64,000 nucleotides of DNA from the IMG/VR virus record IMGVR_UViG_3300006922_000005. The stretch is one strand, 5' to 3'. The DNA comes from a virus (taxonomy: Duplodnaviria; Caudoviricetes). A program made the position numbers and the translations under genes. The notes under the pieces are model-generated. The model had not been told where the DNA came from and made no database searches. It saw only the letters and a list, made by a program, of their open reading frames with translations. Each line of letters opens with the position of its first letter. The first letter of the stretch is position 1. Of the stretch, positions 9,375 through 28,843 are shown piece by piece.

Positions 9375-10136
9375 TTAGCCAATTACGAATGATAATGGTT
9401 TAGAACCATCTACGTAATTTGCCAAGTCCATTTCCAATTTCTCCATTTCGGCCATTGCATCTGCTTTGAGAGCATCACCGTTGAGTGAAGTTCCGCCTTG
9501 CGGTGTTGATATGGTTGCAAATTTGCTTCTTGCTTCACCTAGCATATATTTACATACTGCTAGTGTGTAGTCTTTAAGCCATTGTCCAGCATAAGGATCA
9601 CTTAATAGATTAAAGTCTGGACGATAATTGTATAGTTGCATTAATACTTGTTCGTCTGATCTAGGACGTTGCATAATTGTAAGTTTCTTACTTACAGGAT
9701 CAAACTTAAAGTTAATAAAACTACCAAACATTTTACCAACTAATTCTTGATATCCTGCAAAAGCATAATACGTACCAAGTCCACCCATTTGTGATGAACT
9801 TAAAAGATATGAATTTGAATAAGCCAAGTTAAACGGTTCGAATAATGTTCCACCATCTCCGCCACCTGAACGTGAACCAATTGAACGTCTAAAAAGTTCT
9901 CGTACTTCTATTACTTCATTAGGTAAAATATAATCGTTTGTGTCTTCTTGAAACTCTAGTATAGCATATGATTCTTCTACAGCGTTTTCACTACGTTGTC
10001 TAAGTTTGCCAAGTGCTTTTTCTAATGCTACATCATAGTGGTTAGGATCAAGTTCAACGTCGATCATACCATCGCCGAGCATTGTTCTAACGTAATTAAA
10101 GACTGCCTGTTTCTTATTTTCTAAATCATTGCTCAT
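9375..10136 (-). CDS. gp13: Neck protein, T4 gp13-like
   Basis: LG...IDVELD, W.KDYTLA.CK..LGEARSKF..I..PQGG.SLNG. Confidence 0.8.
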   Translation of the reverse strand: MSNDLENKKQAVFNYVRTMLGDGMIDVELDPNHYDVALEKALGKLRQRSENAVEESYAILEFQEDTNDYILPNEVIEVRELFRRSIGSRSGGGDGGTLFEPFNLAYSNSYLLSSSQMGGLGTYYAFAGYQELVGKMFGSFINFKFDPVSKKLTIMQRPRSDEQVLMQLYNYRPDFNLLSDPYAGQWLKDYTLAVCKYMLGEARSKFATISTPQGGTSLNGDALKADAMAEMEKLEMDLANYVDGSKPLSFVIG

Positions 10137-10158
10137 ATAAAGTTTCCTCTGTTAAACA

Positions 10159-10175
10159 TATTTATTCTATAAATA
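10159..10175. promoter_or_regulatory. Divergent late promoters between gp13 and gp14
   Basis: tattta at 10159-10164 (minus strand) and TATAAATA at 10168-10175 (plus strand). Confidence 0.75.
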
Positions 10176-10183
10176 CAATTACT

Positions 10184-11332
10184 ATGCCCAGACTCAGTTT
10201 ATATAAACCGGAGAAATCCGCAGATTATCGCTTTATAGACAGGAATGTTAACGAATCCTTTCAAGTAGGCGGTACAGACATATTCATACACAAGTACGAA
10301 GGTCCTGTCGATCCTGGTGCTGATAAAAGCACCCCAAGTCAACCTTATGGAACAAACGATATACCTGAGACAAAAATACAAGATTTATTGTTTTTAGAAA
10401 ACAGAGATAGAAAATATTCAGATGATGTGTATGTTATCCGCGGCATTTACAACGTACAAGATTTAGACTTTGATCTTTCACAATTTGGAATGTTCTTACA
10501 GAATGATACTATTTTTATAACATTTCATATGAATTCAAGTGTTGAAAATTTAGGGCGTAAATTAATGAGTGGTGATGTATTAGAACTACCACACTTAAAA
10601 GATGAATATGCACTTAATGATTATGGTGTTTCACTTAAACGTTTTTACGTAATAGAAGATGTAAGTCGTCCAAGTGAAGGATTCAGTCAAACATGGTATC
10701 CACATTTATTAAGAGCAAAATGTAAACCAATACTTGATAGTCAAGAATTTAAAGAAATATTTGATAAAGATAGTGGCGAAGGAACAGGATCAACAATACG
10801 TGATGTACTATCAACATATGAAAAAGAAATGCAAATTAACGAAGCAGTTCTTAACCAAGCAAATGAAGATATTACAGGCGATCCTGAACAACCAGTAATT
10901 AGTGGTTATGATACAAAGCAATACTTTGTAGTACCAACTGATGATAAAGGTAACATTGATATTAATGATGACGGGTCAAGTACTCCAACATTAAAAACTG
11001 CAAAAGGAAACTTTTATGTTGGTTATCTTACTGAACAAGGAGTTCCACCAAACGGTGCTTTATACAGTTTTGGATCTCAGTTTCCACAAGCGGCCAGTGA
11101 TGGTGAATTCTTTTTAAGAACTGATTACTTTCCAAATAGACTTTTCCGTTACAACGGTAATAGATGGGTTAAATATGAAGATGCTGTAAGAGTTGAAACA
11201 CCTAGCAGTGATACTGCTAAAAATCAAATTGGTACATTTGTTAATAACAAAAGTAAAAATACTATTAACGATAAAGAAGTTGATGAACGTCAAGCATTAT
11301 CACAAGTACTTAAACCAAAGGCAGATAATTAA
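10184..11332 (+). CDS. gp14: Neck/head-closure protein, T4 gp14-like, with C-terminal extension
   Basis: LLFLENRDRKY, DLSQFG.FL..D...ITFH, GDVLELPHL; position between gp13 and gp15. Confidence 0.75.
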   Translation: MPRLSLYKPEKSADYRFIDRNVNESFQVGGTDIFIHKYEGPVDPGADKSTPSQPYGTNDIPETKIQDLLFLENRDRKYSDDVYVIRGIYNVQDLDFDLSQFGMFLQNDTIFITFHMNSSVENLGRKLMSGDVLELPHLKDEYALNDYGVSLKRFYVIEDVSRPSEGFSQTWYPHLLRAKCKPILDSQEFKEIFDKDSGEGTGSTIRDVLSTYEKEMQINEAVLNQANEDITGDPEQPVISGYDTKQYFVVPTDDKGNIDINDDGSSTPTLKTAKGNFYVGYLTEQGVPPNGALYSFGSQFPQAASDGEFFLRTDYFPNRLFRYNGNRWVKYEDAVRVETPSSDTAKNQIGTFVNNKSKNTINDKEVDERQALSQVLKPKADN

Positions 11333-13813: not shown

Positions 13814-14539
13814 ATGGACAAACTGAAGATTAAATTTACTAAACCCCCCGGAGCAATTAATAGTTTAACAGCACAACAAGTAGTTGTTGATAAATTTGAA
13901 GATTGGGAAGAAATTCCTGATCCTATGCCTGCTACAAAGATGGTACCTGATTGGTTTAAACAAACTAAACCATTAGGAGGTCCTATTGATACTATGCCTA
14001 CTATTAAGAAATGTCCACCATTTTTAGATGCAATAACATCAGGATATATAATTAATTTTTGTTCTACACTTAATGTTAAACACATTACAGATTCACAAGT
14101 TTCTAAAACAGGTAAAGGGTCAATGTTTATGAGTTCACATGCTATTGGACAGTTTGAAAATGCTCCGTGGTATGGCAAACCTGTATTAAAATTTGCTAGT
14201 CCGTGGATTATTGAAACTCCGCCAGGTTGGAGTTGCTTTTTTACTCACCCATTAAATGTTCCAAATGATCAATATCATATGTTGAGTGGTATAGTTGATA
14301 CAGATACGTACAGAGTTCCTGTTAATTTTCCTTTTGTAATGAACACGCCGTTAGGAGGAGAATTTAATTTTGATACTAAAACTCCAATGGTACAAGTTAT
14401 TCCTTTTAAAAGACAAGATTGGGAAATGGAAGTTGGTACAACAGATTGGGACGAATGGAAGACTCACCAAGGAGTATTAGGAAACTCTGGTGACGAGGCT
14501 TATAAAAAGAACTTTCATATAAAGAAAAAATTTACTTAG
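13814..14539 (+). CDS. Conserved phage protein of unknown function
   Basis: Start reassigned to MDKLKIKF at 13814. Motifs [47 protein letters not shown]. Confidence 0.7.
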
Positions 14540-14840
14540 GAGTAACTGTAACAGTGCCCATGCCCTGTTTTACTTCAAACTTAACACCTTTATCATCGCC
14601 TACAATTTGAATGTCAGGACCACTAATACGCACAAGGTTAATCATTATATCGTAACGACTGCGTTTATCAGGGTTACTTAATATATCATATGCTTCTTTA
14701 ACTTTTTGAAAAACTTTTGGATCACCTTTTCTATCAGGGTGAGTTTTCATAGACAATTTTCTGTATGCTTCTTTAATTTCACTTTGAGAAGCACTAGCGT
14801 TAACGCCTAAAACTTTATATAAATTATCTTCTTGCGTCAT
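14532..14840 (-). CDS. Stand-alone J-domain (DnaJ-like) protein
   Basis: YKVLGV...[12 protein letters not shown]...HPD...F..VKEAY.ILS.P.KR.RYD. Confidence 0.9.
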
Positions 14841-15176: not shown

Positions 15177-16673
15177 TTATATGTTCTTATACCATTTTGT
15201 GAGATAGTCATAATGGTTGTCTAAGTCACGCATTGTACGATCTATACGATAGTTTTCACTATCAACATAACTTTCTGAATATTTCAAATAATCATCGCTC
15301 ATAAAAGAAATACTTTTGTCATAAAAGTCACTGCCGTATAACATTTCAAACCATTGTCCTGTATGAAACATACTAGTGATTCCAGGTAGGAACATACTAT
15401 CTTTTGGACCGGGTACAAACATTTCTAACCTTTTCTTACATGTATCTGGAAGTTCTTTGCTTGTAACATCTCTCCAAAATTGTGTGTCTTTTCTAGAAGC
15501 AAATTTATAGTGTGTAAAAATAAAATCTCTAATTTCATAGTACATTGATAACCATTGATTATTAATATAATGTAAATTATCCTTACCCCATGCACCGTCA
15601 CTAAATCTTAAACTTTCTACTAAAAATTCAACTGACTTTGTAGTAAATGTTATTCCTGTTGCTTCTAATGGTTCTACAAATCCTGCACTTAATCCTATTG
15701 CTACTACATTATCGTGTGCAATACCTTCGTGTGTACCAATACGCATTTCTAAATGATTTGCAGGAGCATCAAACTCACCAATTGCTTCACGTAATTCTGC
15801 TTCTGCATTTTCTTTTGAACAGTATGCATCACTGTAAACATAGCCATTACCAATACGATCATAAGTTGGAATAGTCCAACGCCAACCGTTTTTCATAGTA
15901 GTTGCTTTTGTATAAGGATGACATTCTTCTTGTGGATTTTTATATTGTGTAGGAATAGCAACTGCTCTATTACATGGTAAATTTTCACTTTCGTCTATAT
16001 ATCTAACACCTAATGTTTTTCCTAATAATAAACTTTTAAATCCACTACAGTCTATGTATAAATCTGCGTGGTATTCAGCACCAGAAGCATCACGTAAACA
16101 TTTTATACCTTGTTCAAATGTATCTACTTCAGTAATTTCTGTGTCAACAATATCAATTTTATCTTTAATATTTTCTTTTACTGTTTCGCCAATTTTATGT
16201 GCATCAAAGTGTACAGCGTCCCATGATGGTGTAAGGAACCCGTGTGTAAAATCCATAACATGACTTAGTTTTGGAGATTTATTTGCTTTAGCAAGTTTAT
16301 AACTTTGTACAAAGTTGAAAAATTCTTTTTTACTTTTACCTAACCAATAATTAAATGTTGGAATTTCAGGACCTAATACAAAACTGCCATAATCGTCATT
16401 GTCTACAAAATAAGGTTCATCGCTCCAGCCGTTAAATTCTACACCTAACTTATATGTTGCTCTTGCAGATTTCATCCAATCAACTGGCTGTAATCCACAC
16501 TTACGTAAAAACTCTGTAGTGTAAGGTTGTGTACCTTCTCCTACTCCAACAATACCAATCTTACTACTTTCAATTAGTTGTATCTTTACTGCACCTGGTA
16601 TCGTGTTTCTTAAATATGCGGCTGTTAAGTATCCACTTGTTCCGCCACCTAATATACAAATATTTTTAATCAT
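15177..16673 (-). CDS. Flavin-dependent halogenase (tryptophan halogenase family)
   Basis: GGGTSG FAD motif, IGVGEGT, ATYKLG (position of the catalytic Lys), WRWTIP (WxWxIP), FVEPLEATG. Confidence 0.9.
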   Translation of the reverse strand: MIKNICILGGGTSGYLTAAYLRNTIPGAVKIQLIESSKIGIVGVGEGTQPYTTEFLRKCGLQPVDWMKSARATYKLGVEFNGWSDEPYFVDNDDYGSFVLGPEIPTFNYWLGKSKKEFFNFVQSYKLAKANKSPKLSHVMDFTHGFLTPSWDAVHFDAHKIGETVKENIKDKIDIVDTEITEVDTFEQGIKCLRDASGAEYHADLYIDCSGFKSLLLGKTLGVRYIDESENLPCNRAVAIPTQYKNPQEECHPYTKATTMKNGWRWTIPTYDRIGNGYVYSDAYCSKENAEAELREAIGEFDAPANHLEMRIGTHEGIAHDNVVAIGLSAGFVEPLEATGITFTTKSVEFLVESLRFSDGAWGKDNLHYINNQWLSMYYEIRDFIFTHYKFASRKDTQFWRDVTSKELPDTCKKRLEMFVPGPKDSMFLPGITSMFHTGQWFEMLYGSDFYDKSISFMSDDYLKYSESYVDSENYRIDRTMRDLDNHYDYLTKWYKNI

Positions 16674-17293
16674 TTTATCTCCGCATAGTTAAAGTGTTCT
16701 TGATTTCCTAATTTAGTCGGTAACATATTAAAACTAAGAGTATAGCGAGGCTTAGGTGTTATATTTTTTTCACTTCTGTGTTCAATATAACTAGGCCATA
16801 ATATTAATTTATTAGGCTCTGCTTTACTGCTTATTCTGTCTGTTAAAAACGGACTATTTCCATCTCTAGTAACACTAATTGTATTTCTCATTTTACTTAT
16901 CGGATTATAAAACTCTGTACCACCTTGATCAGGCGTACTATTCAAATAATATACTCCACTTAATAAACTGTTAGTATGTGTATGTGGTCCAATACTTTGA
17001 CTATTGCTAAATTTATTCATCCACATACTAGTAATGTATAAATTTTCAGGTTGATAACCTATTTTATTACAATATTCTAATCCACACTTAATAATTGTTT
17101 TAGTAAAGGATTCAAATGCTACATCTTCTTGTAGATTTTGTTTAGAAATCTGATACATAGGAAATTCTTCAAATCCTTGCTTATGATTTGTCCACTCTAC
17201 AGCATCAATCATATTATGAATATCCTGATCTGTAATATCAAGTTTAAATTCTACAAATCCTGTTGGAAATAATCCAATAGTATTAGATTCCAT
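16670..17293 (-). CDS. 2OG-Fe(II) oxygenase-like protein (HxH type)
   Basis: W.N...HTHTNSLLSGVYY...LWPSYIEH...RYTLSFN. Confidence 0.8.
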   Translation of the reverse strand: MESNTIGLFPTGFVEFKLDITDQDIHNMIDAVEWTNHKQGFEEFPMYQISKQNLQEDVAFESFTKTIIKCGLEYCNKIGYQPENLYITSMWMNKFSNSQSIGPHTHTNSLLSGVYYLNSTPDQGGTEFYNPISKMRNTISVTRDGNSPFLTDRISSKAEPNKLILWPSYIEHRSEKNITPKPRYTLSFNMLPTKLGNQEHFNYAEIK

Positions 17294-17924
17294 AATGTCT
17301 ACCTCTAGAGTTTTTACCTAAATTCTTTAGATTAAAAGTATATGGTATAACAATACGTTCTTGTAACTCTATTCTATTTGTAAAATTGTTTTGTCCTGTC
17401 ATATGCGGGATATCACTTCTAAAAATTACGCACTGTCCTGTTTTAGCAGGAACATAAAATTCGCCTTCAGTATCTACAGTTCGTTGTTTAAAGTCAGGTT
17501 GCCATGGTTGCCACTTTATATCAGGTTGAAGTAATCCTAGTGGAGCAGAACCTTCAGGTGCATGTAAATAATAGACTGTACTTAATAGTGTATTTGCATG
17601 TATGTGCGGTTTATGTGTACTTGCTCCTTGTTTACTTAACACTGCCCAACTGTTTGCAACAAATATATCGTCAACATCGATATCCCAACCTATACTGTCA
17701 GAAAATTTATGTACTTGTTCTATAAGCCAAGTATTCAGATGTTGCATTTCATCATGTTGATGAATACTTTCGTCAGTTACGTAACCTAAACCTTCACCGT
17801 TATCAATACTATTGTCTTTTTCAAGACGTTTTATTAAATTGTAAATATCTTTATGGTCATTACATTGATCAACAGAGCGTTGTGCAATACCAACATTAGT
17901 AGGCCATATAGAATTTACTTGCAT
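17283..17924 (-). CDS. 2OG-Fe(II) oxygenase-like protein (HxH type)
   Basis: HIHANTLLSTVYY...IFRSDIPH...R.VI.YTFN. Confidence 0.8.
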   Translation of the reverse strand: MQVNSIWPTNVGIAQRSVDQCNDHKDIYNLIKRLEKDNSIDNGEGLGYVTDESIHQHDEMQHLNTWLIEQVHKFSDSIGWDIDVDDIFVANSWAVLSKQGASTHKPHIHANTLLSTVYYLHAPEGSAPLGLLQPDIKWQPWQPDFKQRTVDTEGEFYVPAKTGQCVIFRSDIPHMTGQNNFTNRIELQERIVIPYTFNLKNLGKNSRGRHYGI

Positions 17925-18505
17925 TATAGAAACTCCTTGATATCTTTTTCAAAAAAGATTCCTTTATCATAGTATCCGTCATATCGTTGATCAGCATAAG
18001 GACCATTTGCGTCTACATAATGTAAAAATACTTGACCTAATTTATAATCCTCAATTTCGCATTTATTACGCCAATGCATTACTTCACAACCTTTGTATAA
18101 AACAGCATCTCCATCTTCTAAAAACACTTCTTTATCTTCAATAACAATAGGCCAGTTGCCTTTTCCGTTATCACGTAATTTTACAGTTAAACTATATTCA
18201 CATGCAGGTCTATCCCTATGCTTAGGCATAGCATTTCCAGTAGTATACAAACGTGCATATGTATATGTTGGAAATAATGATAAACCTGTAAGACCTTCTA
18301 CTTTTTTATGCATAAAATTTAGAAAAGCATCAAATGTTAAGTCTCCACTTCTTGGACCTAAACACCCAGGAACCATTTCGTCTCCTGTTTTTGCTTGTGG
18401 ATCTCCTTCTTTAATATAAACCTTAGTACTAAACTCTAAGTATTCATATAAGAAATGTGCTGTTTCAAGTTCAACAAAGTTTTTTATAAGTTTATACTGC
18501 TCCAT
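17924..18505 (-). CDS. 2OG-Fe(II) oxygenase (HxD type)
   Basis: TYARLY...KHRDRPACEYSLT...GDAVLYKGCEVMHWR...QVFLHYV. Start reassigned to MEQYK at 18505 (TAATG overlap). Confidence 0.8.
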   Translation of the reverse strand: MEQYKLIKNFVELETAHFLYEYLEFSTKVYIKEGDPQAKTGDEMVPGCLGPRSGDLTFDAFLNFMHKKVEGLTGLSLFPTYTYARLYTTGNAMPKHRDRPACEYSLTVKLRDNGKGNWPIVIEDKEVFLEDGDAVLYKGCEVMHWRNKCEIEDYKLGQVFLHYVDANGPYADQRYDGYYDKGIFFEKDIKEFL

Positions 18506-20211
18506 TAAGTAATATTTTCCCTTTTCTTTCTTAAAACAAAGATACCTAATCCATTCCAATAATCATCTGGATCTTCTCCAGTAGTTTGTAATTGTTTTTG
18601 AAATAATATTTTGTAATCTTTCTCTTTTATATGCTCATTGGTAGCATTTTGTATTTGTATCCAGTTCCAGTCATCCATAATCAATACAAAGGTCTCTTCA
18701 AACTTATCATAGTACCTTGATAAAAAGTTTTTTGTTTGTTCATATGTGTGATCTCCATCATAAAATACTATATTACTAGTATGTGGAATATTTGTCAAGT
18801 CTAAACTTTCAACAGGCTCATTAAAACCTAATACTCTATTTGGTCCTTTTACTTTGGACATATTATGTTGGAAGATCTTTAATGGATTACCATCTTTTCC
18901 TTGCCAACCATCTACTTCACGCATTGGTTCTATATCATTAGTGTGCCAACTATCAATACACACTGCTTGTATATTGTTTCCTTCTAATGCACTACAAAAT
19001 GTTGCACCATGCCATGTACCAATTTCTAAATATCTTACATCTTTTGTTTCACACAAGTTGTTTAAGAAATGCTTAATCTTATGACTAGTTAATCCTTCAA
19101 TTTGTAAGGTATTTTCAGACAACTTACTTGTATGGTCCATGCTTTTTTCAATAGCATTGTTAATTGAACTTATAAACTTATTTTTTGTTTTAGCACTTAC
19201 TACATCTTCGCAATAATGACATTTCCAGCAGTCAAATTTGCAATTTTTAATTTTATCACGCCATACTTTAATTGGTTTATTATCTAAATCACCAACATCA
19301 ATAAATTCATTAAAATTATCGAACAATATGTCTTGCTTACTTGCAAACCGTTCAACTAAATCCACTGTTTCCCATAATCTTTCAATTGACTCTCTGCCAT
19401 GCATCTTAAAAACATCAATTCCAGCGTCCATTAGTTCTACCCAGTCTTCTCTCCACGGAGTAAAGTTTGCTACTTTTAGTTGAGCGGCTGGATCCATAGC
19501 GTCCCATCTAGGACATGTAGGTTTAGATATTGGATCCATAAAGAAAGTAGGCGACATTGCTTCTTGTCTACTAAAATTAAACTCAAAATGTTCATCTTGT
19601 ACAGGACAATTACCCCAACACCCTTCATTGGCTAGTAAACTTATTTTAAAGTCAGGACAAATGTTCTTTCTTACGTATTCTTTGGCTTCTTTTATTTCTA
19701 AAAGTTTGTCTTTATCACGCATTAAGTCTCTATCTAAGTTTACGTAATAAAATCCTGCTTCTGCAAGTTTTACAACTTCGTTTGCACGTTGTACATTACG
19801 TAAAATTGTGTTTTTTACACGTAACTCAGGATATGCTTTTTGAATTGCTCCTTGTAACATCCACATAGTATGAGGAAGTGTTGCTATACGTACACCTGCT
19901 TCGTATAACGGTGCAAAGTTTTTAATCCATGTTTGTAAATTCTGCATAGTTGGTGGCACATTAATATTATTAAATGTTGCACTAACAGGTATGCCGATTA
20001 TTTCTTGTATTTGAACTGCGTTATCACTAATTGCTCCCCAATCGCCTTGATGGAAAACATCACCCATAGCGTCTTGGCCAAAAGGAGGTATACGACTAGT
20101 AAAGTATACATCATATATATACTTTTTATTTTTTTCTAAAAACGGAATAAATCGTTTTGTAAAACTATCGTAATCTAGTTTTGGATTCAGGGGAATCGAG
20201 AAGTTTTGCAT
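18505..20211 (-). CDS. Fusion of a U32-family (Fe-S hydroxylase-type) domain and a class I SAM-dependent methyltransferase
   Basis: N-half: NLDRDLMRD, LLANEGCWGNCP, GIDVFKMHGRE (compare U32 GVDSLKIEGR), CKFDCWKCHYC. C-half: YLEIGTWHG, FYDGDH, IMDDWNW. Start reassigned to MQNFSIPLNPKL at 20211. Confidence 0.7.
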   Translation of the reverse strand: MQNFSIPLNPKLDYDSFTKRFIPFLEKNKKYIYDVYFTSRIPPFGQDAMGDVFHQGDWGAISDNAVQIQEIIGIPVSATFNNINVPPTMQNLQTWIKNFAPLYEAGVRIATLPHTMWMLQGAIQKAYPELRVKNTILRNVQRANEVVKLAEAGFYYVNLDRDLMRDKDKLLEIKEAKEYVRKNICPDFKISLLANEGCWGNCPVQDEHFEFNFSRQEAMSPTFFMDPISKPTCPRWDAMDPAAQLKVANFTPWREDWVELMDAGIDVFKMHGRESIERLWETVDLVERFASKQDILFDNFNEFIDVGDLDNKPIKVWRDKIKNCKFDCWKCHYCEDVVSAKTKNKFISSINNAIEKSMDHTSKLSENTLQIEGLTSHKIKHFLNNLCETKDVRYLEIGTWHGATFCSALEGNNIQAVCIDSWHTNDIEPMREVDGWQGKDGNPLKIFQHNMSKVKGPNRVLGFNEPVESLDLTNIPHTSNIVFYDGDHTYEQTKNFLSRYYDKFEETFVLIMDDWNWIQIQNATNEHIKEKDYKILFQKQLQTTGEDPDDYWNGLGIFVLRKKRENIT

Positions 20212-20902
20212 TTTCTTGTACTGTGTCCTCAAGTTTTGGAACAATATCTACATTGTCCTTTTCTTTTAGCATGTTAATTAATTTCTGTTCAACATCTTTT
20301 TCAATAGCAACAATACCAGTTTCAAATTGTTTAGTATATTCTAATGCTCCGCGAATAATTTTATCTTGATCTGCATGAGGCATATGCATAATACTTTCAA
20401 GATTACCTGTACCAATTTTACCATATGAAAGCATTTCCATTGCCGCTTGTTTTCCCATACGTGAAATCCAATATTCTCGTTCTTTGGCTTCTTTATCATT
20501 TGACATGTCTAACATAGCATCTTTGTTAGGCATTAATGTTTTAAATTTCTTTAAAAATCGATCACGTTCTAAACGTACACCAGCAATCCTACGCTTGTTA
20601 CGTTCTAAATGATTTTCAAATTCTTCAATTTCAATCTCTAATAATTTTGATTTAGCAGGAGAAGTTTCTTGTTCAAGTTCTTCTTTTTTAATGTCAATTT
20701 CTGCTTGTTTTTTTCTGTCATCGAATGTACGATCTTCGATGGTTTGTGTTCTATGTTCAATCTCAACTAAACACTGTTTTGCTTTACGCCAATCAGTAAT
20801 GTTAGTATCTACAACATAACTATCCATTTGGTACTTACTGTACGCATAGTCAAAACCTAGCGAAAAGTCTATAATTTCATCGTTTGATAGTTCGTCAGAC
20901 AT
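20165..20902 (-). CDS. Coiled-coil protein, probably fibre-associated or a chaperone
   Basis: 245 aa with a long charged heptad region; GGAG SD; TAAATA at 20937-20942. Confidence 0.65.
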   Translation of the reverse strand: MSDELSNDEIIDFSLGFDYAYSKYQMDSYVVDTNITDWRKAKQCLVEIEHRTQTIEDRTFDDRKKQAEIDIKKEELEQETSPAKSKLLEIEIEEFENHLERNKRRIAGVRLERDRFLKKFKTLMPNKDAMLDMSNDKEAKEREYWISRMGKQAAMEMLSYGKIGTGNLESIMHMPHADQDKIIRGALEYTKQFETGIVAIEKDVEQKLINMLKEKDNVDIVPKLEDTVQENAKLLDSPESKTRLR

Positions 20903-20948: not shown

Positions 20949-21704
20949 CTAGATGTTCTTGAATAGTGTACGCATTGGAGTTACTTCTGCAACATCTTTA
21001 CCAAAATCAACTTCTAAGTATTTTTCAACAAATGCTTGTACTTGTGCTATTGTTGTACAGTTGTTTAATTCTTTGCGTAATTTTGTAGATACTGCTAACA
21101 CTTTGGCTACTTTTGTTTGATATTCTTCATTGTTTTTAATGATACTATCAGCAAAATTAGACGGTGTTACACCTTTTGCGTCAGCAAGTAATTTAAGTAA
21201 TGTACCTGTACTTCCGGATTCTTTGTATGCTAGTGCTTGTTGATATTGTAAATCCCATGTTTCTTTTTCAATAGGACCTCTATCTACATCAATTGCAGTG
21301 TATGCCATGTATGCAAATGTTGCAATTTTTCCTGTAATCCATGATTTATCATAATCTATAATCCAAGCCGCTTCAGAATTTGTCCATGGTAGTTTAGTTT
21401 TTTCCCATGTGTTACCTTCAGGGTCTCTGTCAGGCATTCCTGGTGCTGGTGTTTTAGTTGGTTTCCATGTATCAGAAATTTCACCAGTTTGATCACAAGT
21501 CCAATATTCGTTATAGGACTTCATAGAATTCGTTACACCTTTCTCATATGCTTCATCAGTAAACTTTTTAGCATATATAAAACTTGACCAGTCGATGTAT
21601 TCTAATGTTGCATCATTAATCTCTGCAACAATTCCACCAAACTCAGTTTTAATTGTTCTTATGTAACCGTTTTCTTGTTCTCTTCCAAAATATAATAATT
21701 TCAT
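20949..21704 (-). CDS. Putative tail-fibre assembly chaperone
   Basis: ETWDLQYQQALAY...LLKLLADAKG....FADSII resembles the helical domain of phage fibre-assembly proteins; starts 2 nt after the fibre gene stop. Confidence 0.55.
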   Translation of the reverse strand: MKLLYFGREQENGYIRTIKTEFGGIVAEINDATLEYIDWSSFIYAKKFTDEAYEKGVTNSMKSYNEYWTCDQTGEISDTWKPTKTPAPGMPDRDPEGNTWEKTKLPWTNSEAAWIIDYDKSWITGKIATFAYMAYTAIDVDRGPIEKETWDLQYQQALAYKESGSTGTLLKLLADAKGVTPSNFADSIIKNNEEYQTKVAKVLAVSTKLRKELNNCTTIAQVQAFVEKYLEVDFGKDVAEVTPMRTLFKNI

Positions 21705-21706
21705 TT

Positions 21707-24700
21707 TTAAATCCCTGTACTAAAGCACGCCCCTGATGAACATCCAGGCTGGCCTTTTGGTTGTAATGCACTTTGTCCACTTGATCCGTTACTCATACTA
21801 TCATTTGAATATGTAAGTTTCCAACTGTCGTTAGCCTGACCATTTGAACCCTGCCACATACCAACTGAATATCCTGCATCTTGACCCATTTGCATGTTAT
21901 GCTCACCCTGTGTGTTCTGACCATTCGGGAAGTTACCAATTGTACCTTGCGAACTGTCATTACTTGAGTTGACTTTTTCTAAGTTACGTGAGTTGTTTGG
22001 TGGCCCAATGTAGTAGTAACCATACTTACTTGTTAAGCCTTTTGAGTGAGTACCTTGTGTACCAAACATACCACTCCATGATTCTGTACTAAACGAAATC
22101 TTTCTGTGTGTACCATTCCAGTGATAACCAGCAGTACTACTCCATGCCGCTCCAACATAGTCAGAACTTAAACCTGAGTTGTTAACGTTTGTACGCATTG
22201 TTTCTGTAGAGTGATTCATAATGTCTGTATTAGCACTACCACCACCTGTGATTACACTAAACTGTGTATCATAGTTTGAAACACCGTGGTCATTACGTCC
22301 AGTACTCATGTTCAACGAACTATTATTGTAACCCTTACTACTATCGTTAGTCATATTAAATGCCCAACCTCTGTTAGAGTTTGTAGGATAACTTGGATCG
22401 TTACCCCATGACCAACCTGTTACATCACTATGTCCACCGTCCATATATGTACCTGGTTGACTCATTATGTTACCTAAGTTATTTGAAGTATCATTTGAGT
22501 GACTTGTTCTGTTAACGTTTGACCATGGAACTGAACTCTTATATCCACCTGCCATATAACCTCTGTTAATAACAGTTCTATATCTCCAAGTAGTTCTACC
22601 TTTAATATTAAACGTTACATCATCACTTGCTGGGAACGCCGCATCGTCTGTAACTCTAATAGTTACTGAACCTGTTCTGTCGTATGCTCTGTTCAACCAA
22701 CTGTGATTAATTGTACCACTAATCAAACCTGTTCCTGCATTTAAACTTAGACCGTTACTGAATAATCCTTCAGGGTCTGCTTGTACACTGTAACTAACTG
22801 TTTGTCCTGGATCTGGTTCATTTGCTGTAAGTTGGATACTTGTTGTACCGTATGTACTATCACTTGTTGTACCATCGTCACCACCCGGTGTTGTACCTGC
22901 TGTTGGTGATGTAAATGTTGGTGCAGTATTCTGTAAAATCTCTATTGAGTAAATTACATCAGTGTTTGTTGTACCATTTGTACCTTGTGAAGCAAATCTA
23001 ACTGTAAATGTTTTAGTTGTTGTACTTGGAACACTTGGTAATGTACCTGTAATTGCACCAGTTGCACTGTTCATTGTTAACGGACCGCCTTGGTCTGCAA
23101 ATAAACTTCCTGCATCAAGTATAACAGTGTAAGTAATTGTATCACCATCTGCATCTGTTGCTGTACAACTTGTAATATTAACTGTTGTAGTTTCTGAGAA
23201 ACTACCTAAACTACCTGCTGGTGTATTAGCAGTAGGAGCATTATCAATTTCAATACCTCTTGGTAATGTTGATTTAGATCCGTTTGTAGTTGTAAGTTCT
23301 ACATTGTATCTACCTGCCGCTAGTCCACTAAACACGCCTGCGCCTGTTTGTACTGTAATTTCCTGTTCACTTACATATGTAACTGAACTCAATGGAACTG
23401 TAATAGTACCAAATTTAACACCTGTTGGATCACTAAATTTATCACCTAAGATTTCAATTGTAGTGTCTACATCTGGATCAAATATGTTTGGTGTAATACT
23501 AACAATACTTAGACCAGCACCGCCTGATGTTGCCCATTCTGTACCGTTATAGAATTCAATTGTTTTTAAAGTAGTGTTATAACGTAACATACCTTCAATT
23601 GTTTCTGTTGGACGTTGGTTAGTTGCACCACGTGCAAGTACCAAAGCGTCTGTACCCATAAATCCTGATTTAACAAATTTGTATACAGCACCTTCTGTTG
23701 GCACACTGTTATCTGAAATATCTGTTAAGTTTGGATCTGTACTAAATTCGTTAATAGTAGCACCAGTTTTACCTGCTGTAATACTACCAAGTTGTAGTTC
23801 GTTCAAACCTGTTAAGTCAAATTCTTCTGACGATAGTGTTGCTCTACCAGTGGCCTGTTCAACCTTAAAGTAGTCACCAACTCTAAAGTTACCATCTTGG
23901 TCAGTGGTTACGTAGAATACTCTACCACCGTTTTGTGAAACAGTTTCTGCTTCTTGGTTTGGTGTTTGTCCGTAGTCTGCTTTAATAATAACTGGATAGT
24001 TAGTATCAGCAAATCCACCTGTACCAATGTCTAAGAAGTCATGTCCTGTCATACGTACCTGACTAAATGCTTCACGTATTGTTACTCTTGCACCTTCGTC
24101 TGGTGTTTTGTTACTTGGAACTTTTGGATCAACAGCAATGTTTGATGTACCATAATTTATTTTTGCTGGAGCCGCCGCTTTACCAATATTAATAATATCA
24201 ATTACTACTTGTACAAGTGCCTGTGCTCTAGCATCTGATCCTGCTTCTCTAACAAGTCCTGCGTCTGTAACCTGTGAAACTGCACCACGTACTGTTGTTG
24301 GTACTGTTTCGTTAATAACGTTACCAATAATAGTTTTCAAGTATGTGTTTGCCGCAACTGTTTCTGCTTTTTGTGTTGTAATTGCATATCTTGCTGATGG
24401 ACTTGAATAATATGAATAACCAGCATCAACTGATTGACCATTTGATGCTGTGTCTAAATCAAATAGTACTGCATCAATAATTAATCCTGTATCACGTCTA
24501 CATAATGCTGTGTCATACACCAATGATGGATATGTTGCATCAATATATTGAATAACTTCTTCTTGTAAGAATTCTTTGTTAGCATTAAGCAATGCATAAG
24601 CATTTGGATCATTTCCAGTTACAAATGTAGGTTGTTGGTAACCACTTGTAGAAATAATAAAGTAAGTTTCACTATCTCCATCAATAAATGCTACCGAACC

Positions 24701-27700
24701 ATCTTTAATTGGTCTTGTTAAACCGTCAACTGTGAAACTAATACCTGTACCAATACTAGCAAAACCTTGTCTAGTTGCTTGGATCGATAATACTTTTTCT
24801 GGTGAGTTATCAACAACACCGTTTGTATCTGTAAGTGCAAGTGTTGCATCACTAAAGTCCATATCATGGAATTTGTAATCTAAAATAGTTGCATCTTCAA
24901 TAGTAGGTGTAACTGTAATATAATTGTATGCTCCACTTGAATCATCTAGTGTACCAAAGCCACCACCTGTTCTTGTAAAGTTAAAGTAACCTGCATTATT
25001 ACCGTTAGTCATACCTGCCATAATCAAGTTTACACCATCAATGGAGATACTGTTTAATTCTACACCTGAATCGTTATCTGATAATTCTCTACTAAATGCA
25101 TGTATACCTGTTGAATCAAAACTTGAAATCAAACCATTGTATACATTAGATCCTGCAACTGTTTCAATAGAACCAACTGCATAAAGTTCATCACCTAATG
25201 GAGTAACTGCTTTATAACGTCCTGTTTTTAATGAAGCATATTGTTTTTGCCACGCAACTTCACCATCTAATCTAATTCTTGCAAGAATTGGGTTATCATA
25301 TGTGTTAACTGTTGGAGGTGATCTCATCTCTGCATTTTCACCATTTACAAATGTTCCACTTGTAATGTTAACATCAATAATGTGCTGGTTACCTGTAACA
25401 CCTTGGTTAGCAACTATTGTTGCAACTCCAGTACCACTACTGAATAAACTATAACCTACTGTAATATTAGCATCTTGATCTAGTGTTGCTCCACCTGTAT
25501 CAAAAGCAATTCTAACAGATCCACCTTGACCACCGCCAATGTTTACGTTAGCAACTGTAGTTGCTGTTGATCCTGAATATGTTAACTGTGTTTGTGGGTA
25601 AGCATATGAAGTAACACTTCTTACATACTGTCCACCAACTGCAAAGTATAAACCATCTTCACCAGTATTGTCAAATTTCATATCAAACATACTATAGTCG
25701 CCTAAGTGGAAACTCTTAACGTAGTTTCCGTTTGAATCATATGCTACAATACCTGTTTCGTTTGCAGTAGTATCGTTAAATCCTAAAAATACTTTTCCTT
25801 CTAAGTCTGCCGCACCTTCTGTTACGTATGTTACGGTACTTGATAAACTTTCTCTACCAAATGCTAGACTTACAACGTCAATTGAGTTAGTTGTACTACC
25901 ATCATAGTTGATAGTTTCACTCCATTGTATTACACCACCATTTGATAATTTAGCAAGTGTTGCACCTGCTGTTGAGTGATTACCTGCTATGTATAATGCT
26001 TGACCTTCGTCATGTACCATACCTGTAATATTATCTGTAGCAGAAATAACTTTCTGCCATTGTATTTCACCTAGTCTTGTAAACTTAACAATAAAACCTT
26101 TGTATACACTGTTTTGATAAATTCTACCTGCCGCATAATATCCGCCTGCAGTATCTTCACATACACAATTAAGTTCTCCTGGGAAACCAACGTTATCACT
26201 TGTTGGAGCACCTAGTGTTTGTTGCCAATCTAATGTGTTACCTGTCCATCTTGCAAAATACATGTAAGATGATGACTGTTGGAAAGTTGCATAGTTTGTA
26301 CCTGAGTACCCTGGTGCTGTATGACCAACTGCAAAAATATCACCTGTTGAATCTTTAAACGAAGTATTAAATGTTACATCATGTTGTACTTCTTGAATAG
26401 CGTTTAGTTCTTGTGTTGCTAATCTAATATGTCCTGTTAATGGTGTTTCTGCTTGTGAAAAACCATCTGCTCTAACAGCAAATTCTCCATATGCACTTGA
26501 ACCGTTAACTGAACGAATCTTACCACCGCTTTCTGCTAGGTAACCTACATCACAATAATATGTAAACACTGACACAAGTTCTGAACGTCCGTCATTTAGT
26601 GCGTGTACACCAATACCATCGGAGTTAATTTGTGTCCAGTCATTTGCAACCATACTCTTATAACCACCATTGTGTAGAGCACCGTCAATTTTCATTCCAG
26701 TACCACCTGGTGTAAAGTTTGTACAGTTTTGTACGTATGGCGACTGTGAAGTAATCCATACGCTAGTATCGTTTGGTCCAGTACCTGGATCTAACTGTGC
26801 TTGTACACTACCAGTACTAAAGTTTCTAAATACAATGTTACGTAATCTTGCACCATTGTTCATTTGGAATACTGCGGAGTTAGCATTTGGAGTAGATCCG
26901 TCATCGGATATACCAACACCAAAACCATTGTCATTTGTTGTATCAGGTTGTACATCAACAGCACCTAAGCCGCCGCCTTCTACAACAATACCTTTACCAA
27001 CTCTAATTGGACATTGTTCTGTATATGATCCAGAAGCAATAGCAATAATACTTTGGCCTCTGTTGAATACTGTATCACAAGCATGTCTAATTGTTTTCCA
27101 TGCTGTTGCTGGTGTTCTACCATCGTTTGAATCATCACCTTGTGGCGATACAAAATAATCTTGTTGTGGAGTTTGAGCACCCCATTTTACATCAGTTCCA
27201 TCACTGTATAAGTATGAACCTGCTGGTCCAATTGCTAGTGGAACGTTTCCAACTGTACCTCTAACAACCATGTCACCACGTGTTGTAGTAATAGTACTTG
27301 CATCACCTTGTGCAACTAGACTCCAATCACTTGCTGAAACATTAGGAGTATCACCAATTGTTTCTCTTAGTGCGATATAAGAACTTAAATTATATTCTAC
27401 AACATCATCTGTATAGTATGTTGTTGTTGCATTATATTGTCCATTCCATTTCATACCTGGAAGGAATGTTGACCATATACCGCCACCACTTGCTGGATCA
27501 CTTGGGTTATTAGAAAGTGTAGAAGTGTGTACTACTTGTGCTTCCCATAATCTACCACCTTCTAATACAATATCACCTGGATAGTATTCTGTAGTATCTT
27601 GCCAAATTCCTTTATATTCAAAGGCTTCAACAAACACATCATAATATTGTGTAGTTGTTGGTGTTGTACCTACTGGTGGAGTTTGTCCTTGTTTAACAAT

Positions 27701-28843
27701 ATATCTTTTTGCTCCATACTTAATAACGTCACCAGCGGAGTAAACTGTAGTATTATCCCATGTACCTCTTTCATTATAAGAAGTTGCAAAGATATCCCAG
27801 TTGTTTGTTTCTGTTGGTGCTACGCCTGCAGAGTCATTTTTAGCAATGTAAAGATAACCACCGTATGTAACAATGTCTTGGAAGAAATAACTTTCTGAAG
27901 AATTATAAGCACCTCTCCAACCTGCGCCTGCGGCAACTAATGCCCAGTAAACTGAACTTTCACTAACAGTAATTGTTGACCAATCATCGTTAGTTGCTTG
28001 TTCAGTCATGTCAGGATGGTTATGACAGTACCAATATAAAGTATCTGGTGAACTTTGTGGTACAGTAATTCTTACTTGTCTTGTTGTTGCGGCATCAAAG
28101 CCTGCTAGGTATTGTGTTCTACCTAATTGTAATTGTCCGTCTAAATAATATTCAACACCTTCTTCGTATACTGCTCCACCTGCGTGTGAACCATTTCCTG
28201 TTCTTGAAAATAGTATTGGGTGTCCGTTGTTAGTACCACTATCTTGATTAAAGATATAAGTGTTACCTTCAGTAAACGCTAAGTCTGGTGCTTGTGTTCC
28301 GTCTACAAAATATCTGTTACCACCTGTGCCACCTAAAGTATCAACATTAACAGTAATAGTGTATGTAGTAGCGGATGGGGCGCCACCTGGTTTATTACTA
28401 CCTGTTGTGTGTTGAAGATTTAAGTAAAGTGAATTTCCGTAAGTTACTAGGTTACCAATATTATATTCTGATGCGTTATTATATTCGCCATCATATTGTA
28501 AACCTGAAATATATAAGTTTGAATTTGTACTAGTAGAACTTTCAAAGTTTGCTCCCGCAGTGTGTCCTGTAAGTACAATATAAACGTTTGATTTATATTT
28601 TACAATATCACCTGGTTTGTAAACTGTTGCTGTTACCCAATCACCTTTCCAGTCAGTACCGCCTGCCATTTTTTCAAGTTTATCACTTGATAAATCTGCT
28701 TCGACATTTGAAGAAGTGTGATTTTCTTTTACTACATATGATATACCACCATGTAGTACTACATCGTCTTTAATGTATGAGTAGCCTGTTACCCAAGCGC
28801 CTCTCCATTTAAACTTAATTCTACCTAGATTAAAATCTGCCAT
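21707..28843 (-). CDS. Giant tail fibre/spike protein A (2378 aa)
   Basis: N-terminal W...T.Y..GD.V.Y.G..Y repeats; YFVSPQGDDSNDG plus a probable beta-helix; propeller-like region; FSQVRMTGHDFLDIGTG; Ig-like domains; Asn/Gly/Ser-rich tip. Confidence 0.85.
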   Translation of the reverse strand: MADFNLGRIKFKWRGAWVTGYSYIKDDVVLHGGISYVVKENHTSSNVEADLSSDKLEKMAGGTDWKGDWVTATVYKPGDIVKYKSNVYIVLTGHTAGANFESSTSTNSNLYISGLQYDGEYNNASEYNIGNLVTYGNSLYLNLQHTTGSNKPGGAPSATTYTITVNVDTLGGTGGNRYFVDGTQAPDLAFTEGNTYIFNQDSGTNNGHPILFSRTGNGSHAGGAVYEEGVEYYLDGQLQLGRTQYLAGFDAATTRQVRITVPQSSPDTLYWYCHNHPDMTEQATNDDWSTITVSESSVYWALVAAGAGWRGAYNSSESYFFQDIVTYGGYLYIAKNDSAGVAPTETNNWDIFATSYNERGTWDNTTVYSAGDVIKYGAKRYIVKQGQTPPVGTTPTTTQYYDVFVEAFEYKGIWQDTTEYYPGDIVLEGGRLWEAQVVHTSTLSNNPSDPASGGGIWSTFLPGMKWNGQYNATTTYYTDDVVEYNLSSYIALRETIGDTPNVSASDWSLVAQGDASTITTTRGDMVVRGTVGNVPLAIGPAGSYLYSDGTDVKWGAQTPQQDYFVSPQGDDSNDGRTPATAWKTIRHACDTVFNRGQSIIAIASGSYTEQCPIRVGKGIVVEGGGLGAVDVQPDTTNDNGFGVGISDDGSTPNANSAVFQMNNGARLRNIVFRNFSTGSVQAQLDPGTGPNDTSVWITSQSPYVQNCTNFTPGGTGMKIDGALHNGGYKSMVANDWTQINSDGIGVHALNDGRSELVSVFTYYCDVGYLAESGGKIRSVNGSSAYGEFAVRADGFSQAETPLTGHIRLATQELNAIQEVQHDVTFNTSFKDSTGDIFAVGHTAPGYSGTNYATFQQSSSYMYFARWTGNTLDWQQTLGAPTSDNVGFPGELNCVCEDTAGGYYAAGRIYQNSVYKGFIVKFTRLGEIQWQKVISATDNITGMVHDEGQALYIAGNHSTAGATLAKLSNGGVIQWSETINYDGSTTNSIDVVSLAFGRESLSSTVTYVTEGAADLEGKVFLGFNDTTANETGIVAYDSNGNYVKSFHLGDYSMFDMKFDNTGEDGLYFAVGGQYVRSVTSYAYPQTQLTYSGSTATTVANVNIGGGQGGSVRIAFDTGGATLDQDANITVGYSLFSSGTGVATIVANQGVTGNQHIIDVNITSGTFVNGENAEMRSPPTVNTYDNPILARIRLDGEVAWQKQYASLKTGRYKAVTPLGDELYAVGSIETVAGSNVYNGLISSFDSTGIHAFSRELSDNDSGVELNSISIDGVNLIMAGMTNGNNAGYFNFTRTGGGFGTLDDSSGAYNYITVTPTIEDATILDYKFHDMDFSDATLALTDTNGVVDNSPEKVLSIQATRQGFASIGTGISFTVDGLTRPIKDGSVAFIDGDSETYFIISTSGYQQPTFVTGNDPNAYALLNANKEFLQEEVIQYIDATYPSLVYDTALCRRDTGLIIDAVLFDLDTASNGQSVDAGYSYYSSPSARYAITTQKAETVAANTYLKTIIGNVINETVPTTVRGAVSQVTDAGLVREAGSDARAQALVQVVIDIINIGKAAAPAKINYGTSNIAVDPKVPSNKTPDEGARVTIREAFSQVRMTGHDFLDIGTGGFADTNYPVIIKADYGQTPNQEAETVSQNGGRVFYVTTDQDGNFRVGDYFKVEQATGRATLSSEEFDLTGLNELQLGSITAGKTGATINEFSTDPNLTDISDNSVPTEGAVYKFVKSGFMGTDALVLARGATNQRPTETIEGMLRYNTTLKTIEFYNGTEWATSGGAGLSIVSITPNIFDPDVDTTIEILGDKFSDPTGVKFGTITVPLSSVTYVSEQEITVQTGAGVFSGLAAGRYNVELTTTNGSKSTLPRGIEIDNAPTANTPAGSLGSFSETTTVNITSCTATDADGDTITYTVILDAGSLFADQGGPLTMNSATGAITGTLPSVPSTTTKTFTVRFASQGTNGTTNTDVIYSIEILQNTAPTFTSPTAGTTPGGDDGTTSDSTYGTTSIQLTANEPDPGQTVSYSVQADPEGLFSNGLSLNAGTGLISGTINHSWLNRAYDRTGSVTIRVTDDAAFPASDDVTFNIKGRTTWRYRTVINRGYMAGGYKSSVPWSNVNRTSHSNDTSNNLGNIMSQPGTYMDGGHSDVTGWSWGNDPSYPTNSNRGWAFNMTNDSSKGYNNSSLNMSTGRNDHGVSNYDTQFSVITGGGSANTDIMNHSTETMRTNVNNSGLSSDYVGAAWSSTAGYHWNGTHRKISFSTESWSGMFGTQGTHSKGLTSKYGYYYIGPPNNSRNLEKVNSSNDSSQGTIGNFPNGQNTQGEHNMQMGQDAGYSVGMWQGSNGQANDSWKLTYSNDSMSNGSSGQSALQPKGQPGCSSGACFSTGI

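Follow-up and report, generated by a model that had tools for sequence, protein, structure and literature searches.

A marine cyanophage gene that joins a divergent U32-superfamily barrel to a methyltransferase, possibly a hydroxylating and O-methylating tailoring enzyme

The window, i.e., the whole stretch of 64,000 nucleotides (nt) of viral DNA analyzed here (IMG/VR record IMGVR_UViG_3300006922_000005), originated from a marine T4-like cyanomyovirus, and its best phage-genome matches were Synechococcus and Prochlorococcus myoviruses, at 42–45% identity. The gene under study lies on the minus strand and encodes a fusion protein of 568 amino acids (aa), with a U32-like N-half and a C-half resembling S-adenosylmethionine (SAM) methyltransferases. 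It runs from an ATG at 20211 to a stop codon at 18505–18507, while the plus strand of the same interval is riddled with stops and has no open frame. The ATG was supported as the start because homologs align from residue 1–4. All eight motifs quoted in an earlier note on this DNA were present in the minus-strand protein: NLDRDL (aa 158), EGCWGNCP (196), TCP (232), GIDVFKMHGRE (264), CKFDCWKCHYC (324), LEIGTWHG (395), DGDH (485), and DDW (513). Among the PHROGs, the whole fusion was assigned to phrog_1458 and the N-half alone to phrog_36869, both labelled function unknown. Near-identical DNA was found in marine metagenomes from many studies. Contigs from RNA libraries of three studies covered parts of the gene, which is no proof of transcription and was not used as evidence.

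Table 1. Features of the locus. Alignments: A1, N-half of the phage family; A2, C-half homologs; A3, broader phage family; A4, sister subfamily (32 PF01136-positive proteins).
Feature	Position in window	Strand	Remarks
Fusion gene, 568 aa + stop	18505..20211	-	phrog_1458
U32-like (β/α)8 triosephosphate isomerase (TIM) barrel (predicted), aa 1–295	19327..20211	-	AlphaFold2 (AF2) model, VIA, hhalign
Barrel Cys/His loop, aa 196–233: E196-G-C198-x3-C202-P ... H208 ... C233	19513..19626	-	kept in A1, A3, A4
C-terminal Cys cluster, C324-x3-C328-x2-C331-x2-C334	19210..19242	-	invariant in 71/71 relatives
Methyltransf_24 class I SAM methyltransferase domain (predicted), aa ~373–562	18526..19095	-	Pfam E = 4e-8, AF2, fold matches
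245-aa charged helical protein	20165..20902	-	phrog_1409 (labelled unknown function); overlaps fusion gene by 47 nt
251-aa protein	20949..21704	-	phrog_1604 (labelled unknown function); second conserved syntenic partner
2378-aa giant fiber-like protein	21707..28843	-	heads same-strand gene run
Downstream tailoring genes: 211-aa protein, two 2OG-FeII_Oxy_5 oxygenases, flavin-dependent Trp_halogenase	15177..18559	-	
Flavin-dependent Trp_halogenase, intact	15177-16673	-	Pfam E = 1.8e-106
211-aa protein	17924-18559	-	phrog_2954; PHROG label 'ferrochelatase', E = 7e-43
102-aa protein, little beyond a DnaJ (J) domain	14532-14840	-	Pfam E = 7.6e-23

Direct sequence comparison placed the N-half (aa 1–355) in no known family. 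A scan of aa 1–385 gave no Pfam match even at E ≤ 10, the U32 model PF01136 (IPR001539) included, and there was nothing significant in NCBIfam, where the only hit was a weak one to a radical SAM family (aa 256–355, E = 0.05). Sequence searches of the PDB with the protein itself and with the A1 profile gave no match, nor did an hhalign comparison of A1 with one UbiU sequence (probability 4%) or phmmer with UbiU and UbiV against all collected relatives. The AF2 model, based on a 27-sequence alignment, had a predicted local distance difference test score (pLDDT) of 81 and a predicted template modelling score of 0.79, and consisted of eight β/α units followed by a helical segment. When this model was compared with 48,161 representative solved chains using VIA, the U32 protein Mk0906 (5d88_A) came first with Z 15.5 (225/247 residues, root-mean-square deviation 3.3 Å), and the second-best chain, another TIM barrel, reached Z 12.4. 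Mk0906 was also at rank 1 in Foldseek, but by a negligible margin. In the ESM Atlas, the closest non-viral cluster was a bacterial U32 family (template modelling score, TM, 0.70), and two close viral clusters carried U32 labels on a minority of their members. The earlier note had allowed for the N-half failing to model as a U32 TIM barrel; a barrel was obtained, with Mk0906 as its best solved match.

Profile comparisons led to the same superfamily. An exhaustive profile search for the N-half revealed 519 relatives. The A1 profile matched one protein, P0378, over its full length (E = 3e-18), and P0378 passes PF01136 (38.1 bits vs 22.4), being the sole PF01136 match among 71 relatives; ten intermediate relatives scanned for the same model had no match. 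The family of P0378 (A4), found in DPANN archaea, bacteria of the candidate phyla radiation (CPR) and Omnitrophota, was PF01136-positive throughout and bears the NCBI name 'U32 family peptidase'. With hhalign, A1 and A4 aligned at a probability of 99.6% (E = 9e-25), the alignment spanning residues 3–342 in 304 columns with the Cys motifs included, and their consensus sequences having in common NEGC-x3-C-P...HF, DRD-x2-RD, FK-x2-(G/T)R and a C-terminal C-x3-C-x2-C-x-Y-C. The A4 profile matched Mk0906 (E = 2.8e-9), and A3 was co-linear with Escherichia coli UbiU, UbiV, TrhP, and RlhA (E = 5e-6, probability 70%). The phage N-half also keeps polar positions that the U32 superfamily as a whole conserves (K..GR, DR-x-L, and the E before the Cys loop).

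Based on model and profiles, the N-half is identified as a divergent member of the U32 superfamily with a predicted (β/α)8 TIM barrel. It falls by sequence outside the TrhP, RlhA, and UbiU/V families and is no orthologue of them. The earlier note's U32-type N-half therefore stands as regards superfamily fold and profile homology, but not as regards a Pfam U32 match or the canonical four-Cys motif. With Mk0906 the phage N-half shares the (β/α)8 fold, and with A4 full-length profile homology together with Cys and polar motifs. Unlike either, the phage protein carries a fused methyltransferase, comes from a phage, sits in a fiber-gene module and has no direct PF01136 match. The Peptidase_U32_C domain (PF16325) was not found after the barrel in Pfam searches, its place being taken by the Cys-rich helical segment and the methyltransferase. 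Longer relatives (P0254, P0340, P0344, P0262, and others) have N- or C-terminal extensions without Pfam domains. One standalone relative carries the JGI name 'sugar phosphate isomerase/epimerase', which was rejected in favor of U32 on profile and fold evidence.

Characterized U32 enzymes bind a [4Fe-4S] cluster through the motif CX6CX15CX3/4C, or through CX6CX16CX38C in the UbiU variant. A regular expression for CX6CX15CX3C matched TrhP and RlhA, yet no protein of the phage family (0/71) or of the sister subfamily (0/32). Seven Cys are kept instead, namely the pair C198 and C202, C233 about 30 residues later, and the C-terminal four, which sit on a helical extension after the barrel and recur in the sister subfamily. 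Residues that were invariant or conserved at ≥90% in A1 comprised N158, D160, R161, E196, C198, C202, C233, D266, K269, H271, G272, R273, E274, C324, C328, C331, and C334. The seven conserved Cys are compatible with iron-sulfur (Fe-S) binding, which they do not prove.

The C-half matched Pfam Methyltransf_24 (PF13578) over aa 395–515 with 34.5 bits, vs a cut-off of 26.3, and the AF2 model of aa 371–568 (pLDDT 87.6) had the seven-strand topology of class I (Rossmann) methyltransferases, in agreement with the earlier note. A PDB sequence search with the C-half profile found no match. The top Foldseek matches were cation-dependent O-methyltransferases, i.e., Rv0187 (6jcl), 3tfw, TrmR (8k1f, 5zw3, and 5zw4, from two species and one of them tRNA-bound), and MeT1 (6g7d), the last ranking high together with SpnH (4cdz) and SafC. 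An exhaustive VIA search yielded many methyltransferases at Z 15–16, with O-, N-, C-, and RNA-methyltransferases tying (Z 15.9–13). The Rossmann fold and motif I of the phage C-half are found in Rv0187, 3tfw, MeT1, SpnH, and COMT/CCoAOMT (Z 15–16), although identity to the cation-dependent O-methyltransferases is 10–17% and other methyltransferase classes score about equally. Invariant in A2 were E396, G398, and G402 of motif I (LEIGTWHG), and D485, H488, D513, D514, and N516 of the acidic motifs DGDH and DDWNW; D420 was conserved at ≥90%, and W517 was invariant or conserved at ≥90%. The groups E396/G398/G402, D485/H488, and D513/D514/N516 follow predicted β-1, β-4, and β-5, respectively. By strand position, these residues would correspond to the sites for SAM, Mg2+ and the substrate hydroxyl in COMT, CCoAOMT, and NovP. 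Family match, model and conserved residues identify the C-half as a predicted SAM methyltransferase of the Methyltransf_24 family, probably of the cation-dependent O-methyltransferase type.

The two halves were found together with great regularity. A large protein database contained 1972 fused relatives, the best 80 IMG/VR loci were fused in every case (80/80), and 121 phage genomes had a full-length copy, each annotated as 'hypothetical protein'. A fold and a plausible chemistry can now be assigned to this 'hypothetical protein' of >120 cultured marine cyanophages and ~2000 metagenomic proteins. In one uncultured phage recovered from three samples (L010–L012), each half has a gene of its own, the two genes overlapping and keeping the order of the fusion, and in a Margulisbacteria locus (L020) a U32 gene of the sister subfamily precedes a class I methyltransferase of a different family. 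The N-half also stands alone in the Ralstonia jumbo phage RP31 and in contigs of bacterial metagenome-assembled genomes (MAGs). Being fused, adjacent or, in a cellular relative, followed by a different methyltransferase, the two predicted activities appear from gene arrangement to be functionally coupled. That U32-like proteins pair repeatedly with methyltransferases of two families speaks for successive reactions on a common substrate and fits a hydroxyl being made by the N-half.

Deposited gene models of the homologs begin downstream of the homology. In S-CAM4 (L001, 6001–7719) the deposited coding sequence starts at 6136, vs a tblastn match start at 6001, and in P-SSM4 (L002, 5001–6689) at 5124 vs 5001, i.e., about 41–45 codons 3' of the homology start. 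Likewise, the PHROG 1458 match begins at query residue 49. Since the gene models start downstream, the annotated homologs and PHROG 1458 lack the first β/α unit of the barrel.

The sister subfamily occurred in radical-SAM-rich loci in five of the seven loci sampled; two archaeal contexts were uninformative. In a Gracilibacteria genome with recoded TGA (L013, 3015–5984), three tandem U32-like paralogs of 322, 324, and 327 aa (41–63% identical) were surrounded by eight radical SAM genes. A bacterial locus (L014/L015, 1860–8106) encoded, besides the U32-like protein and a 339-aa protein, a 75-aa NHLP-type precursor with a short core ending in GCW (E = 1.3e-11 vs TIGR03793, below the trusted cut-off). 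This precursor was flanked by two TIGR03975 proteins, 'RiPP maturation radical SAM C-methyltransferases' (460 and 428 bits vs a cut-off of 282), RiPP standing for ribosomally synthesized and post-translationally modified peptide. The locus is, by its gene content, a candidate for a new RiPP pathway using a U32 enzyme. An Omnitrophota locus had PqqD and a radical SAM-SPASM protein, with the U32-like enzyme fused to tetratricopeptide (TPR) repeats, while the Margulisbacteria locus had radical SAM and B12-radical SAM genes along with small open reading frames (ORFs). In a recoded CPR-type genome (L018), the radical-SAM-rich U32-like locus also contained carbamoyltransferase C-terminal fragments (9642–10433). 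Literature searches on U32 proteins with RiPPs, with cyanophage and with Mk0906 found nothing relevant.

Among 72 viral loci with sufficient sequence, 70 had a member of the 245-aa family upstream of the fusion gene and on its strand. A homolog, ORF137 (E = 1e-13), lies directly upstream of the standalone U32-like gene of RP31, and the family also occurred in the bacterial loci L103 and L105. A feature search of the ESM Atlas with the 245-aa protein revealed only viral hypothetical clusters, all below 0.9, and a complex prediction for this protein with the U32-like domain scored 0.00, which is no answer and speaks neither for nor against binding. The relative order of the 251-aa and 245-aa genes varies between genomes. 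As in the window, the module was headed elsewhere by a large surface or fiber-like protein, with Laminin_G_3/DUF2341 in L105 and an LVIVD beta-propeller in L103. A Trp_halogenase gene also directly follows a distant U32-like relative (L110, 2692–4488). After the U32-like gene, RP31, L010–L012, 9 of the 80 viral loci and two bacterial loci encode a DUF401/CitMHS-like membrane protein, and no such gene was found in the window. Nor were tRNA genes found in the 64-kb window, although the phage may carry some elsewhere. A phmmer search of the window with one precursor query revealed no NHLP-like peptide (best E 2.4) and is too weak to exclude peptides. The earlier note had pointed to O2-dependent neighbors, which are real, the Pfam matches being the two oxygenases and the halogenase on the same strand downstream. 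Its suggestion of a use in low-oxygen water was not sustained, the sequence occurring in ordinary marine metagenomes and the gene beside O2-dependent enzymes.

Members of the large and mostly uncharacterized U32 family have recently been recognized as hydroxylases that depend on Fe-S but not on O2 and make use of prephenate; the three pathways known lead to ubiquinone, 5-hydroxyuridine (ho5U) in tRNA and 5-hydroxycytidine (ho5C) in rRNA. For UbiU and UbiV, both the binding of [4Fe-4S] by conserved Cys and prephenate as oxygen donor have been demonstrated. By analogy, we consider it about an even chance (probability roughly 0.5) that the gene encodes a bifunctional tailoring enzyme for hydroxylation and then O-methylation, perhaps of an aromatic residue in a peptide or protein. 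The N-domain would bind one or two Fe-S clusters, one possibly held by the three Cys of the barrel and a second by the C-terminal CX3CX2CX2C. Like UbiU/V, TrhP, and RlhA, it would hydroxylate an aromatic or heteroaromatic carbon without O2, probably with prephenate as oxygen donor. The fused methyltransferase would then turn this hydroxyl into a methoxy group; from the fusion or adjacency of the methyltransferase, the expected product is a methoxylated aromatic carbon. The substrate is a weaker point. It would be an aromatic side chain in a polypeptide, most likely in the tail-fiber/receptor-binding protein encoded next to it or else in a peptide processed together with the two conserved helper proteins, and probably not tRNA.

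Known systems resemble this proposal in part. The UbiU/UbiV pair (with UbiT and UbiG) consists of U32 proteins whose hydroxylations of a lipid-linked aromatic ring are followed by O-methylation and which require accessory proteins. UbiU/UbiV is a heterodimer of two U32 paralogs, however, whereas the phage protein has a single U32-like domain, another Cys pattern and unrelated partner genes. Cyanobacteria are not known to make ubiquinone. TrhP (YegQ; TrhP1/TrhP2) and TrmR (YrrM), which convert U34 of tRNA to ho5U and then to 5-methoxyuridine (mo5U), also couple a U32-type protein with a COMT-like O-methyltransferase. In contrast to the phage protein, TrhP has both CX6CX15CX3C and Peptidase_U32_C, while the phage methyltransferase belongs to Methyltransf_24, is 14–20% identical to TrmR, and had no RNA link in this analysis. 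In Bacillus subtilis, trmR forms one operon with U32 genes, trmR-trhP2-trhP1 (PMC6599085), which confirms the earlier note's statement that ho5U made by TrhP is O-methylated by a separate enzyme. Fusions of TrhO and TrmR in Phytophthora and Phaeodactylum (PMC6599085) provide a natural single-chain precedent for hydroxylase and O-methyltransferase in the domain logic of the phage protein, although TrhO is an O2-dependent rhodanese-type hydroxylase and the phage N-half is U32-type.

Several points weigh against such a tailoring enzyme. With neither a direct match to the Pfam U32 model nor the canonical Cys motif in any of the 71 relatives, cofactor geometry and chemistry could differ from those of UbiU/V and TrhP, and confidence in the model is lowest at the Cys loops (pLDDT 55–75). 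Because the methyltransferase classes tie in the fold search, the fold does not fix the methylated atom, which need not be oxygen. Identity between the phage family and the RiPP-associated subfamily (A4) is only ~23%, so that context may not transfer, and synteny with fiber genes may mirror late-gene packaging rather than a common substrate. Even for TrhP and RlhA, hydroxylase activity is without direct in vitro reconstitution.

With regard to the substrate, we favor a peptide or protein first, tRNA or rRNA second (by analogy to TrhP/TrmR) and a small aromatic compound third (by the DUF401 partner and analogy to UbiU/V). A peptide or protein substrate is favored because of the RiPP contexts and TPR fusions of relatives and the fiber and halogenase neighbors. 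Since cellular relatives lie in radical-SAM/RiPP clusters, an RNA substrate should not be assumed, and a peptide or protein appears from sequence at least as likely as tRNA. The fusion and its two helper proteins might form a virion-tailoring system, in which aromatic side chains of the fiber/receptor-binding protein or of a phage peptide would be hydroxylated and O-methylated, a specific extension that we propose with considerable reserve. If the substrate were a protein or peptide, this would be the first U32 enzyme of that kind, and if it were the tail fiber, it would mean enzymatic post-translational tailoring of receptor-binding proteins in the ocean's most abundant phage–host system. Virion tailoring would also tie an unstudied U32 subfamily of bacterial and archaeal RiPP clusters to the chemical diversification of phage host-recognition proteins. 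What also emerges is a U32 branch whose cysteines are arranged differently, an architecture that genes in radical-SAM/RiPP clusters share.

The strongest competing explanation is RNA modification, in which a phage version of TrhP plus TrmR would act on C5 of a pyrimidine in tRNA (U34) or rRNA, converting ho5U to mo5U and retuning decoding during infection; it would represent a new phage strategy to reprogram decoding. It draws on RNAs being the only macromolecular substrates known for U32 proteins (TrhP, RlhA), on the next step in B. subtilis being taken by a COMT-like O-methyltransferase from the same operon, on the TrmR structures among the top Foldseek matches of the C-half, and on the natural TrhO–TrmR fusion. 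Yet the N-half lies outside the TrhP/RlhA clade, lacking the PF01136 match, Peptidase_U32_C and the canonical Cys motif, and its closest cellular relatives are in RiPP/radical-SAM clusters and not translation loci. TrmR was not set apart from many other methyltransferases in the fold search, and the gene sits among fiber and tailoring genes in a window devoid of tRNA genes. On balance, we regard RNA modification as unlikely.

Alternatively, an aromatic metabolite such as a quinone, indole or phenolic compound could be hydroxylated and O-methylated, as by UbiU/V and UbiG for ubiquinone, with the DUF401-like membrane protein supplying or exporting the compound or a co-substrate. This agrees with the ring-directed chemistry of UbiU/V and the O-methylation that follows, with the transporter-type gene after the U32-like gene in several phage and bacterial loci, and with the high rank of the sugar and small-molecule O-methyltransferases MeT1, SpnH, and SafC; the flavin halogenase next door could equally act on a free aromatic compound. 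The window, however, has neither a DUF401-like gene nor other recognizable small-molecule pathway genes beside the fusion, and its conserved partners, a pair of charged helical proteins plus fiber-like proteins, are not biosynthetic enzymes, which makes tailoring of a small molecule quite improbable.

An equally improbable alternative is that the N-half is no hydroxylase at all and performs radical-SAM-like chemistry, holds a structural Zn site or serves as a fiber-processing or assembly factor, with the methyltransferase acting independently. It is suggested by the exact radical SAM spacing CX3CX2C at aa 324–331, a Radical_SAM cluster among the ESM Atlas neighbors of the N-half (TM 0.69), the weak NCBIfam hit, the missing canonical motif, the first description of U32 proteins as peptidases and the solved Mk0906, which is without a Cys motif at this position, but a radical-SAM-like mechanism is unlikely for the N-half: the motif comes after the barrel and not after β-1, a fourth invariant Cys follows so that no open iron is left for SAM, Pfam scans of the fusion protein had no PF04055 (radical SAM) match, and the radical SAM matches were not significant. 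The retained polar residues of the U32 superfamily and the recurrent methyltransferase pairing, which fits hydroxyl formation, also count against this alternative.

Further observations concern the module and the neighboring genes. A recurring order, [245-aa family][251-aa family or none][U32-like][DUF401/CitMHS-like membrane protein], was seen in the jumbo phage RP31 (L003, 4371–7056), in an uncultured cyanophage-like phage (L010, 7175–10346) and in two bacterial MAG contigs (L103, 2561–6029; L105, 2382–6089), the transporter-like membrane protein being an unusual gene for a phage. Behind the bacterial copy in L103 come genes for a DUF6519 protein and a tail sheath of the phage type (5918–10357); possible identities of the locus are a prophage, a tailocin or an extracellular contractile injection system. 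The 'ferrochelatase' label of the 211-aa product looks doubtful because the protein had no Pfam match, and the true start of its gene may be the ATG overlapping the stop codon of the fusion gene.

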